A stretch of 64,000 bases of DNA. It comes from Spirochaetia bacterium (GTDB taxonomy: Bacteria; Spirochaetota; Spirochaetia; SZUA-6; Bin103). Positions 54,197 to 56,677 of this stretch are shown here, piece by piece; positions within the stretch are counted from its first letter, which is position 1, and each line of letters opens with the position of its first letter. The position numbers and the translations under genes are program-made. Below the pieces are notes generated by a model. The model saw nothing but the letters and a program-made list of their open reading frames with translations. It was not told the DNA's origin and did no database searches. Location: NCBI GenBank assembly GCA_965243545.1, contig OZ251573.1, positions 596,217 to 660,216 on the forward strand. The letters are read 5' to 3'.

Positions 54197-56677
54197 GTGT
54201 ATAAGGTCGCGCTGATCGGGACCGGCCGCGTCGGCTATCAGTTCACGTTCAGCGACCTGCCGGACAACCACGCGGCCGCGGTGGCGGCCAGCGGCCGTTG
54301 CCGGTTGACGGCGGGCGTCAATCGCGGCCGCAAGAAGCTGGCCGAGTTCGGCGCGCGCTTCGGCGTAAAGGCGCTGTATCACGACCACCGGCGGATGCTG
54401 GCGGAGTCGGCGCCGGACGTCTGCATCGTCGCCACGCACCCGGAGCTGCACTGCCGCATGGTCGAGGACTGCGCGGCGGCGCCATCGACGCGCGCCATCA
54501 TCTGCGAGAAGCCGATGGCGCTGTCGCTCGGCGAGTGCGACCGGATGATCGCCGCGTGCGAGCGGGCCGGCGTGCTGCTGCAGATCAACCACAACCGGCG
54601 CTGGCACCCGGAGTGGATCAAGGCCCGGGAGCTCCTGGCGGCCGGCGCCATCGGCGCCCTCAACTACATAGAGTGCTCCATGGACGGCGGCAAGCCGGAC
54701 CCGTCGTGGCGCAGCGAACGTGAGGGGCCTCTGCTGCACGACTTCAGCCACTACTTCGACCTGCTCGACCTGTTCGCGGGCCCGGTCGAGTGGTTGTGCG
54801 GCATGGCCGAGCAGCGGTCCCGGCCGTGGGCGGTGGAGGACTTCAGCGCCGCGTTCATCAAGTTCGCGTCGGGGGTGACCGCCGTAATGCACGGCGCGGA
54901 GCTGACCGACTACGAGCAGCACTCATTCCTGCTGAGCGGCTCCACCGGCGTGATCCGCATGGAGGCCGAGCAGGTCCGCCTGTTCCGGTCGCAGCCGGGC
55001 GACGTAGAGGCCGACAGCGGCTTTGCATGGCGGGAGCTGGCCCCGGCGCCGGTTGCGCGCCCGGCGCCGGCGTCGACCTACACCGCCGCGCTCGACGAGC
55101 TGCTCGACGCCTTGGAGGGCGGGGCGCCGGCGAGCGGGGCGGCGCTGCGCAGCGACGGCCGCGCCGGCCGCCGCTCCCTGGAGATGATCATGGCGATCTA
55201 CCGGTCGCAGCTCGATGGCAACCGTCCGGTCGCCTTTCCGGTCACCATGGCCGAATCGGGCGTGGAGGAGCTGCGGGCGGCCGGCCAGTTCGTGAACCGC
55301 GTCCCGCTCGCCGCCAGGGGGGCGGACCGGCCGGCGGACGAGCCGGCGCGCGCGGGCGGCGCCGCCGGGCGGGGGCCGAGCGGCTGCTGCATCTGCGGAC
55401 TGCAGTTCGGGGACGAGGGCAAGGGCCAGATCGTCGATTACCTGGCCGGCGGCTTCGACGTGGTGGTCCGCTACAACGGCGGCGCCAACGCCGGCCACTC
55501 GGTGTGGATGGGCGCCCGGCGCACGGCGTTTCACCTCATGCCGTCCGGCATCCTGCGCGACGGCGTGCTCAACGTGATCGGCAACGGGACGGCCGTCGAC
55601 CCCGCGCACCTCATCGAGGAGATCGACGCGCTGCGCCGCGAGGGGTACGCGGTCGACCCGGACCGTCTGGCCATCAGCGACCGCGCCCACGTGGTCATGC
55701 CGTACCACAAGATCGAGGACGAGCTGATGGATCGCGCCTTCGTGTCCGGCGAAACCGGCGAGCTCGGCACCACGCGCCGCGGCATTGGCCCGTGCTACGC
55801 GGACAAGGCGCACCGCGTCACCGCCGTCCGCATGGCCGACGTCAAGGACCCGGCGTACCTGCAAGCGCGCCTGCCCCGCCTGGTGGCGATCAAGAACGGC
55901 GTGCTCGGCGCTCTTGCCGCGGAGTCCGGCCTGCCCTTCGAGCCGCTGGAGAGCGATCCGCTGGTGGAGCGGTGCGCGGCCTGGGCCGGCCGGCTGGCGC
56001 CCTACGTCACCGACACCGCCGACCTGCTGGTCGGGGCGTGGCGGGCCGGCCGGAACATCCTGTTCGAGGGCGCGCACGCGGCGCTGCTCGACGTCGACTT
56101 CGGCACCTATCCGTACTGCACGTCGAGCGTCTGTTCGCCGGGCGGGGCGCTCGCCGGGACCGGTCTGGCCGCCGACTGCCTGGGCCGGATCGTCGGCGTC
56201 GCCAAGCTGTACATGAGCCGGGTCGGGGCCGGTCCGTTTCCGACGGAGATCCGGGGAGCGGAGGCTGCGCGGGTCAGGGACGCCGGCAACGAGTACGGCA
56301 CCTCCACCGGCCGGCCGCGGCGCATCGGCTGGCTCGACCTGGTCGCCCTGCGCCACACCGCCCGCGTGACCGGGGTCACCGCCCTTGCCGTGACCGGCCT
56401 GGGCGTGCTGTCCAAACTCTCCGAGCTGCGGGTGTGCGTGGGCTACTCGCTCGGCGCGGAGCGCATCGACCGCGTACCCGCCAACGTGCGGCGCCTTGCC
56501 GACGTGCAGCCGCGTTACGAGGAGATGGAGCCGGTGGGCGGCCCGCTCGACGGCGTGCGCCGGCGCGCCGACCTGCCGCGCGGCGCGCGGCGCCTCCTGG
56601 ATCGGGTCGAATCCTTCGTTGGCGTCCCGATCCGCTACGTCTGCGTCAGCAAGGGCCGCTCCGGCGTGATCGGCTGA
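54197..56677 (+). CDS. Apparent fusion: Gfo/Idh/MocA-family NAD(P) oxidoreductase (N-terminal 350 aa) + adenylosuccinate synthetase-like (PurA paralog) domain
   Basis: GTG start 3 nt after the NHL stop. KVALIGTGRVG..CEKPMAL is a Gfo/Idh/MocA signature. From about aa 400 the PurA motifs GDEGKGQ, NAGHS, TTRRGIGP, GPFPTE and GTSTGRPRRIGWLD appear. There is no stop and no convincing internal start between the two domains. Confidence 0.55.
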   Translation: MYKVALIGTGRVGYQFTFSDLPDNHAAAVAASGRCRLTAGVNRGRKKLAEFGARFGVKALYHDHRRMLAESAPDVCIVATHPELHCRMVEDCAAAPSTRAIICEKPMALSLGECDRMIAACERAGVLLQINHNRRWHPEWIKARELLAAGAIGALNYIECSMDGGKPDPSWRSEREGPLLHDFSHYFDLLDLFAGPVEWLCGMAEQRSRPWAVEDFSAAFIKFASGVTAVMHGAELTDYEQHSFLLSGSTGVIRMEAEQVRLFRSQPGDVEADSGFAWRELAPAPVARPAPASTYTAALDELLDALEGGAPASGAALRSDGRAGRRSLEMIMAIYRSQLDGNRPVAFPVTMAESGVEELRAAGQFVNRVPLAARGADRPADEPARAGGAAGRGPSGCCICGLQFGDEGKGQIVDYLAGGFDVVVRYNGGANAGHSVWMGARRTAFHLMPSGILRDGVLNVIGNGTAVDPAHLIEEIDALRREGYAVDPDRLAISDRAHVVMPYHKIEDELMDRAFVSGETGELGTTRRGIGPCYADKAHRVTAVRMADVKDPAYLQARLPRLVAIKNGVLGALAAESGLPFEPLESDPLVERCAAWAGRLAPYVTDTADLLVGAWRAGRNILFEGAHAALLDVDFGTYPYCTSSVCSPGGALAGTGLAADCLGRIVGVAKLYMSRVGAGPFPTEIRGAEAARVRDAGNEYGTSTGRPRRIGWLDLVALRHTARVTGVTALAVTGLGVLSKLSELRVCVGYSLGAERIDRVPANVRRLADVQPRYEEMEPVGGPLDGVRRRADLPRGARRLLDRVESFVGVPIRYVCVSKGRSGVIG

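Follow-up and report, generated by a model that had tools for sequence, protein, structure and literature searches.

Recent in-frame fusion of a Gfo/Idh/MocA oxidoreductase gene to purA, with replacement of the guanine-specificity residues in the encoded synthetase

The fused reading frame and how it arose

The 64-kb stretch of DNA analysed here (contig OZ251573.1, positions 596,217 to 660,216, catalogued as Spirochaetia bacterium and called the window below) carries an open reading frame (ORF) in which an oxidoreductase of the Gfo/Idh/MocA (GFO) family is joined to an adenylosuccinate synthetase (AdSS), the kind of enzyme encoded by purA. Translation of the window gives 826 codons without a stop (54197..56677, + strand), from a GTG at 54197 that lies 2 nt past the stop codon of an NHL gene to a terminal TGA. 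The open frame, the Pfam domains and the same ORF in the loci L072, L073 and L074 agree on this, and a single 826-codon frame encoding an in-frame fusion is also what the initial annotation had described. The DNA read comprised the window and 20-kb loci of related genomes. For the synthetase half, 185 homologues were aligned to an Escherichia coli reference sequence that had been checked against PDB 1KJX, and its individual residues are cited by E. coli numbering.

The N-terminal half (residues 1-365; 54197..55291, +) is recognized by PF01408 (73 bits), PF22725 (62 bits) and PF02894 (45 bits), with the GFO_IDH_MocA domain on residues 3-132 (E 4e-20) and the GFO C-terminal domains on residues 141-345. 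Its motifs are a Rossmann IGTGRVG (nt 54215-54235), an EKP motif in the form CEKPMA (54503-54520), NHNRRW (54587-54604) and HDFSHYFD (54737-54760). Among solved structures its closest relative is the aldose-aldose oxidoreductase 5a02 (E 2e-17). Comparison with the characterized subfamilies (IolG, Gfo6, LevoglcsnDh and others) assigned it to none of them, the best score being 88.8 bits to TIGR04380 (iolG), with a cutoff of 355. From these features we infer an NAD(P)-dependent sugar-type oxidoreductase that has presumably kept an activity of its own.

Between the halves lies a linker, VNRVPLAARGADRPADEPARAGGAAGRGPSG (residues 366-396; 55292..55384, +), delimited by alignment of the junction with the loci L001 and L008 of two relatives that are described below; the junction itself reads VNRVPLAARGADRPADEPAR. 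Judged from the ends of unfused orthologues its length is about 25-30 residues and not the 45 first proposed, since the unfused oxidoreductases end at about 367-370 and the unfused synthetases start 14-19 residues before the P-loop Phe. The AdSS domain, of the long bacterial and eukaryotic form, occupies residues 399-824 (55391..56668, +; PF00709, Adenylsucc_synt, E 1.6e-141, profile positions 2-415 of 416). Within it, and all on the + strand, are the P-loop GDEGKGQ (residues 405-411; 55409..55429), in which D13 and K16 are kept and K18 is replaced by Gln; FEGAHA (residues 623-628; 56063..56080), with His at the position of E. coli Q224 and Ala at that of G225; and the aspartate/IMP (inosine monophosphate) loop GTSTGRPR (E. 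coli 298-305; 56297..56320), where T301, R303 and R305 are kept and T300 is Ser. Further downstream, in gapless alignment, VTGLGVL (56390..56410) replaces the guanine-specificity motif LTKLDVL, K331 and D333 both becoming Gly, and CVSKGR (56642..56659) replaces STGPDR, with S414 changed to Cys and P417 to Lys. The first two of these motif variants had been picked out at the initial annotation and are located as it described.

A look-up of the exact fusion protein returned no record. A protein search did place it on a 4.6-Mb NCBI/ENA contig, and fused relatives were reached by way of its 90%-identity cluster, which holds two more distinct 826-residue sequences (P0122 and P0134). The ENA assemblies ERZ23495821 and ERZ23496459 and the Logan assembly of the public run SRR18249444 contain the same 826-codon architecture, though they differ from it in nucleotides and in amino acids, so that, with the window, the ORF is seen in four assemblies. 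A sequencing error as the source of the fusion, the objection raised when the frame was first described, is excluded by its recurrence in these three further independent assemblies. Three fused alleles differ by up to 0.10 synonymous substitutions per site (dS), each being exactly 826 codons long and without indels in the linker. The ratio of non-synonymous to synonymous rates (dN/dS) among them is 0.11-0.14 for the oxidoreductase half and 0.09-0.10 for the synthetase half, each half showing 27-31 synonymous differences and 8-11 non-synonymous ones; for the linker it is 0.4-0.6, on very few sites. Values near 0.1 in both halves show that both have been under purifying selection since the fusion. 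Homopolymer-rich DNA of 72% GC from long-read metagenome-assembled genome (MAG) sources can give frameshifts, and L001, itself a long-read MAG, has the two genes in different frames. Nevertheless, with the ORF recurrent in independent assemblies, the excess of synonymous differences in each half and every motif intact in both, explanations by an error of sequencing or assembly, or by a pseudogene with one dead half, are essentially refuted.

Comparison of 14 loci gives the origin of the frame. Ten of them (L001-L010) belong to related species, retrieved by a scan of a genome collection (GTDB genomes with the NCBI label 'MAG: Spirochaetia bacterium'), whose PurA is 82-91% identical to that of the window and which share a common gene order around the locus. 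In eight of the ten (L002-L007, L009 and L010), 1.8-6.6 kb separates the oxidoreductase gene from purA, the gap containing two PhyH-family dioxygenase genes on the + strand and, on the - strand, a toxin-antitoxin pair of PIN and ribbon-helix-helix (RHH) type. L001 and L008 lack this block; there the two genes adjoin each other but remain distinct, each in a frame of its own. The oxidoreductase TGA at 11126-11128 of L001 (87% identity) overlaps the purA GTG at 11125, while in L008 (91% identity) the TGA is followed by a 13-nt spacer containing GGAG and then by the purA GTG. Consistent with this, unfused oxidoreductases of 367-370 residues and unfused PurA proteins of 442-447 residues share the 90% cluster of the fusion. 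At the junction of the window lineage there are indels and substitutions, and the TGA, the GGAG Shine-Dalgarno-like element and the purA GTG have all been lost; the linker is made up of what were once the 3' end of the oxidoreductase gene, the spacer between the genes and the 5' end of purA. Examples of the intervening block are L002 7925-9475, L004 9177-9593 (-) and L007 4229-7432, the toxin-antitoxin pair being PIN/FitA-like RHH, and that of L007 also holds a 1068-residue superfamily 1 (SF1) helicase fused to a DUF559/MTES_1575 endonuclease domain.

The 826-residue protein is thus a recent, lineage-specific in-frame fusion of two neighbouring genes that were once separate. The ancestral order was lactonase, NHL, oxidoreductase, PhyH, PhyH, toxin-antitoxin pair on the other strand, purA and DHDPS-family gene. 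Deletion of the PhyH genes and the toxin-antitoxin pair placed the oxidoreductase gene directly before purA. In the window lineage small indels and substitutions at the junction then erased the oxidoreductase stop along with both the ribosome-binding site and the start codon of purA, leaving one frame. Within the searches made, the fused architecture recurs in close alleles of the same species-level lineage and not in L001-L010, and no other protein combining PF01408 with PF00709 turned up in the protein and genome searches, of which the full-length protein search was lossy in retrieval. That lossiness bears on a candidate explanation that was dropped, namely that purA had been acquired recently and was lacking in the sister taxa. 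The full-length search had seemed to show no relatives at 55-90% identity; a search with PurA only found them at 81-90%, and the earlier gap was an artefact of word-index retrieval, which had missed P0255, a Planctomycetota sequence considered below, as well.

Which protein is made from the fused gene is a separate matter. There is no in-frame ATG, GTG or TTG between nt 55292 and the P-loop, in agreement with the first description of a synthetase part lacking a start codon of its own near the P-loop, and within 200 nt upstream the only in-frame candidates are GTG 55292, the nearest, GTG 55262 and ATG 55247. With the Shine-Dalgarno element and start codon of purA gone, the PurA activity of this lineage must reside in the fusion protein or else in a product started weakly, within the ORF, at GTG 55292. 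Internal initiation is common in high-GC bacteria, and this GTG, in frame and 114 nt before the codon for the P-loop Phe, would yield a PurA of 461 residues, within the 455-475 typical of Planctomycetota PurA. It is not, however, preceded by a GGAG-type Shine-Dalgarno element of the kind found 8-10 nt before the purA start in L001 and L008, and the frame across the junction has stayed open without indels in three diverged alleles, though 31 codons are a small target. Separate translation of PurA from GTG 55292 (or from 55262 or 55247), with the fusion protein minor or absent, accordingly seems rather improbable. A long N-terminal addition need not be an obstacle. Mouse and human AdSS align only from chain residue 35, having some 30 extra N-terminal residues, and the Planctomycetota proteins have 30-45; P0258 (654 residues; on NCBI and JGI contigs of up to 70 kb) has a Pat-like GNAT acetyltransferase on residues 17-152 followed by a full AdSS with the pocket termed type A below. 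Judging from these sequences, AdSS is an enzyme that accepts N-terminal extensions. With AdSS an obligate dimer, and GFO enzymes forming dimers or tetramers, higher-order assemblies of the fusion are conceivable. P0258 is also of interest in its own right, as a second, independent N-terminal fusion in a type A PurA.

Catalytic residues and the guanine pocket

The synthetase half is a full-length member of its family by score, scoring 472 bits to PF00709 (cutoff 27) and 461.2 bits to the NCBI PurA equivalog model NF002223 (cutoff 402; profile positions 5-421 of 430). Its GDEGKGQ and NAGHS align without gaps to the GDEGKGK and NAGHT of E. coli, so that the catalytic base Asp13, the catalytic acid His41 and the P-loop Lys16 are all present. 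The IMP ligands N38, T129, T239 and V273 are kept, as is R143, which is contributed by the partner subunit; so are the aspartate ligands T301, R303 and R305, with Ser for T300, and T128 and G274 are conserved in addition. An AlphaFold2 model of this half built from 60 homologues (mean pLDDT 87.5, pTM 0.89) gave, in a Foldseek search, TM scores of 0.91 to the Bacillus anthracis and mouse structures 4m9d and 1iwe (E 1e-47) and of 0.56-0.60 to PurZ structures. Taken together, these features suggest a working enzyme that probably converts IMP and L-aspartate to adenylosuccinate via 6-phosphoryl-IMP. The initial annotation had instead proposed altered substrate contacts and a different substrate, a proposal at odds with the retention of the catalytic, IMP and aspartate ligands, with the NF002223 score and with the fold match to AdSS.

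Part of that proposal drew on the His at position 224, where E. coli has Gln in contact with the 6-oxo/6-phosphoryl group of IMP. The His is indeed there, but much less weight can be put on it. Mouse AdSS1 (1IWE) and human ADSS2 (2V40), bona fide enzymes of IMP and GTP, read VEGANAALLDIDFGTYPF, with Asn-Ala at 224-225. Among 452 unique sequences, a clade-biased sample whose members are not phylogenetically independent, position 224 is Asn in 241, Gln in 139, His in 66 and Leu in four. On this distribution Gln224 is not a strict requirement of the family, and His224 also occurs in otherwise canonical Tepidisphaerales-like PurA (L011, L014, L017 and P0053).

Another feature around the active site concerns cysteine. 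In the window (55385-55408) and its clade relatives, the first beta-strand of the synthetase domain reads GCCICG, with three Cys right before the P-loop, where canonical AdSS has VVV(L/G). PurA of the window clade has further Cys in GPCYADK, in YPYCTSS and at position 414, and such a Cys-rich surround of the active site is unusual.

The greater departure is on the nucleotide side. Textbook accounts of the IMP branch point have GTP powering the synthesis of AMP and ATP that of GMP, and the specificity of AdSS for GTP is attributed to a small set of residues. Kang et al., in 1994, are said to have switched the E. coli enzyme from GTP to xanthosine triphosphate (XTP) with the single change D333N. 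K18 and S414 we take to be further members of the guanine pocket, on the basis of the E. coli structures and of the covariation described here. In the human ADSS2 structure 2V40 the NKXD motif binds guanine (PMC11594714). These guanine-specificity elements are absent from the window AdSS, which has Q18, TGLG in place of (N/T)KxD, and C414; the PDB chains 6jrq, 1dj2 and 1dj3, together with E. coli, all read TKLDVL where the window reads TGLGVL. For convenience, a PurA in which K18, K331, D333 and S414 are replaced together is termed type A here.

The replacements go together to a marked degree. In the same 452 sequences, Lys or Arg at position 18 is accompanied by D333 in 276 cases and by its absence in none, while another residue at position 18 is found with D333 in three and without it in 171. 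Cys414 is present in 169 of the 171 sequences lacking D333, and D333 in all 279 non-type A sequences examined. K18Q covaries without exception with loss of K331 and D333 and with the change of STGP to CVSK, in the window clade and in more than 150 other sequences, mostly from Planctomycetota. The pattern is found in separate groups, namely the window clade, a large Phycisphaeraceae group and an 'ETTKRG' group (436-449 residues), and also, as isolated cases, in Leucothrix arctica and in a MAG of Acidimicrobiaceae. In neighbour-joining bootstraps with the motif columns removed, 7% of replicates grouped all type A sequences into one clade, and 9.5% grouped the window clade with Phycisphaeraceae type A. 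Either the pattern has had more than one origin or the tree does not resolve it; if the neighbour-joining topology holds, remodelling of the pocket arose more than once.

With four guanine-recognition residues replaced together, the phosphoryl donor is probably not specifically GTP. By this covariation, and by analogy with the phage enzyme PurZ discussed below, the window enzyme and type A enzymes generally would then be without GTP specificity, ATP or any nucleoside triphosphate (NTP) being the likeliest alternative, and what differs in this enzyme, K18Q included, is its cofactor side and not its IMP/aspartate side, a point that the initial annotation did not make. A wider statement can be put forward more tentatively, at somewhat less than even odds: that there is a large cellular AdSS clade, made up of the sponge-metagenome lineage of the window, many Phycisphaeraceae and scattered other bacteria, which has no need of GTP and may use ATP or any NTP. 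If true, the reciprocal GTP/ATP arrangement at the IMP branch point would be broken in whole bacterial lineages, a first indication that some bacteria wire the purine branch point differently.

Ordinary purA or paralogue, and the surrounding genes

It is most likely that the synthetase half is the ordinary purA of the clade. Its full-length match to the equivalog model, intact chemistry, strong purifying selection and constancy of locus favour this, as does a divergence like that of prolyl-tRNA synthetase (ProRS). The gene is at the same position in all ten relatives. In the PurA-only search identities were 81-90% in the clade and then dropped to 55%, and for the window ProRS (7240-8778, +) they were 75-89% in the clade and then 64-69%. 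The nearest named relatives of both proteins (50-55% for PurA, 64-66% for ProRS) are Planctomycetota, which makes the label 'Spirochaetia' doubtful, and the taxonomic assignment of the window and of L001-L010 may be unreliable.

The initial annotation favoured another reading, in which the domain is a specialized paralogue that serves a sugar-acid pathway by joining aspartate, or some other amine, to a substrate that is not IMP, with the housekeeping purA elsewhere. Several of the observations are what such a reading would lead one to expect. In all ten relatives purA lies between the oxidoreductase gene and a DHDPS-family gene, and the overlap of its start with the oxidoreductase stop in L001 suggests translational coupling. 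His replaces Gln or Asn at position 224, and paralogues with the same pocket occur in Leucothrix and in a biosynthetic-type cluster of Acidimicrobiaceae. There are known paralogues of PurA that act on other substrates, PurZ being one and ToyG of toyocamycin biosynthesis another. But every ligand for IMP phosphate, ribose, aspartate and catalysis is kept, whereas PurZ, with its other substrate, has Ser for D13, and NF002223 is passed over the full length, unlike in the Leucothrix and Acidimicrobiaceae sequences. The opposite-strand toxin-antitoxin pair that separates the two genes in eight of the ten relatives indicates that purA is not an obligate operon partner of the oxidoreductase gene. Type A genes elsewhere are without a conserved neighbour: P0255 and P0024 sit among housekeeping genes, one beside aromatic amino-acid genes and the other beside pdxA and uppS, and no conserved partner gene for type A PurA was found in the neighbourhoods inspected. 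The divergence of PurA, finally, follows that of ProRS. A specialized paralogue is, on this evidence, quite unlikely.

The fusion had also been taken as a pointer to function. Its restriction to one lineage, and the distance of kilobases between the two genes in eight of the ten relatives, leave it without value as Rosetta-stone evidence of a functional link, and it is most likely a tolerated accident rather than a functional coupling. As such it is a clean, datable example of the accidental birth of a bifunctional protein, and it warns against inferring function from the mere joining of domains.

The reading preferred here as a whole, to which we give a probability of roughly 0.6, is that a recent accidental fusion joined two proteins that retain their own activities, and that the AdSS is the ordinary purA product of its clade, with a type A pocket and a phosphoryl donor that is probably not specifically GTP. 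Several points weigh against it. That this is the only purA is inferred from the 64-kb window and the 20-kb loci of the relatives, and throughout the clade the gene has stayed in one and the same cluster of sugar type. With TIGR00184, the other PurA equivalog model, the score of 382.6 bits falls just short of the cutoff of 395.55, as would also suit a paralogue, and His224 is rare outside the window clade. The Leucothrix arctica sequence (P0269, WP_109822344.1) and that from Acidimicrobiaceae (P0259, MEY2419982.1) score 386 and 378 bits to NF002223, below its cutoff, and look like extra paralogues with a type A pocket, so that this pocket is apparently present in non-housekeeping copies also. 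Some other residue might take over the binding of guanine in type A enzymes, and the neighbour-joining trees leave a single or a multiple origin of the type undecided. If the reading is right, loss of the guanine pocket matters more than the fusion, which is a modest curiosity.

Two observations on purA copies elsewhere may be added. The divergent P0259 gene (L076/L077 10001-11233, Acidimicrobiaceae MAG), with a GDEGKGQ/TGLG pocket, lies beside cytidine/dCMP-deaminase-like and HIT genes. Around them are genes for AMP-binding, PP-binding, P450, aminotransferase, thioesterase and methyltransferase proteins, and the whole may be a nucleoside natural-product cluster. In a Zixibacteria MAG (JAOZNS01), canonical PurA is encoded twice at full length, on separate contigs (L033 4606-5940 and L038 50-1471), by real duplication or bin contamination.

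Around the fusion the gene order is two ABC permeases and a 2-hydroxyacid dehydrogenase, all on the - strand, then a lactonase, the NHL gene, the fusion, a Uma2 gene and the DHDPS-family gene, followed by an AAA-ATPase/PDDEXK gene, a BNR gene and more ABC permeases; the sugar-type neighbourhood is as first described. Directly upstream of the fusion, the NHL-repeat beta-propeller gene (53337..54194, +; Pfam NHL) is syntenic in L001-L010. The DHDPS-family lyase/dehydratase gene (57500..58456, +; Pfam DHDPS) is downstream of purA in all ten relatives, with 92-94% identity. Between it and the fusion the Uma2-family endonuclease gene (56746..57474, +; Pfam Uma2) is a lineage-specific insertion, found among the ten relatives only in L008 (12491-13156) and also on the fused-lineage contigs L072 and L074. 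None of the neighbouring genes comes near an NCBIfam equivalog cutoff, all being generic family members, and the DHDPS-family gene is below every one; a sialic-acid or sugar-acid role for a cluster of DHDPS-family, BNR, oxidoreductase and lactonase genes is a guess. The Uma2 insertion, together with the toxin-antitoxin, helicase-endonuclease and AAA/PDDEXK genes nearby, shows a locus at which selfish or defence genes have come and gone repeatedly. The AAA-ATPase_like/PDDEXK_9 gene of the window (58492-59268, +) encodes 258 residues against 514 in L072 (10297-11841) and L074, and appears to carry an internal deletion.

Elsewhere in the window there is a restriction-modification-like island (15532-25252, -), with a ResIII/SNF2 helicase of 1090 residues and then N6/N4 DNA methylases of 1028 and 1136 residues; it lies in a segment where the GC content falls to 0.61-0.64, against about 0.72 elsewhere. 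A second segment of lower GC (44-50 kb, 0.61-0.65) contains a DDE transposase (DDE_Tnp_1_4; 44896-46413, +). The molybdopterin-binding subunit of a xanthine-dehydrogenase/aldehyde-oxidase family enzyme (9393-11777, +) is encoded 45 kb upstream of purA, with no evident link to it.

Comparison with known enzymes

The oxidoreductase half resembles Gfo/Idh/MocA oxidoreductases such as Caulobacter 5A02 and IolG in its Rossmann GxGxxG, its EKP motif and its C-terminal alpha/beta domain, and differs from the characterized members in that its similarity to every one of them is only distant.

With canonical PurA/ADSS (EC 6.3.4.4; E. coli 1ADE/1KJX, B. anthracis 4M0G/4M9D, mouse 1IWE) the synthetase half shares 36-42% identity over the full length and TM scores of 0.86-0.91, and it has in common with the mammalian enzymes the Ala at position 225. 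It differs from them in K18Q, K331G, D333G, S414C and P417K, with which the guanine-base pocket is gone, as well as in His224, in the Arg that replaces G130 and in the 365-residue oxidoreductase at its N-terminus.

Its nearest relatives outside the clade are the type A proteins of Planctomycetota (P0010, P0024 and P0255; 'adenylosuccinate synthase [Phycisphaeraceae bacterium]'), which are 50-56% identical to it, pass the PurA equivalog cutoffs and likewise have GDEGKGQ, TG(L/I)(S/A/G) and C414. Unlike it they are unfused, mostly have Asn224 (His in P0255) and carry an N-terminal extension of 30-45 residues, and the window clade is not placed inside the main Phycisphaeraceae type A group by neighbour-joining (7-10% bootstrap). 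P0269 and P0259 share with the window AdSS the pocket of GDEGKGQ and TGL(F/G) and differ from it in covering only about 360 of 430 profile positions, where the window AdSS matches over its full length.

The remaining comparison is with phage PurZ, or DgsS (succino-amino-deoxyadenylate synthase, of the 2-aminoadenine pathway; S-2L 7ODX, phiVC8 6FM1), a short form of 340-365 residues beside the long form of the window. Identity of the synthetase half with PurZ was considered and rejected, Asp13 being kept, the score to NF038379 being 94 bits against a cutoff of 300, and the TM scores to PurZ being those low ones given above; a search of a phage collection gave only distant PurA-like and PurZ0-type matches. 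In PurZ the catalytic Asp13 is replaced by Ser and the substrate is dGMP (PMC12884076). The likeness lies at the nucleotide site. In the crystal structure of S-2L PurZ, which uses ATP and dATP, F306 stacks on the adenine, and N305 and Q308 hydrogen-bond its N6 (PMC8342488). The S-2L sequence has GSTGKGL as its P-loop, N305-F306-A307-Q308 at T330-K331-L332-D333, and no Ser at the equivalent of 414. Phage PurZ is the one branch of the PurA superfamily shown to use ATP/dATP, and the positions altered where it has given up GTP are also those altered in the window AdSS, K18 (Leu in PurZ), K331 (Phe), D333 (Gln/Asn) and S414 being gone from both.

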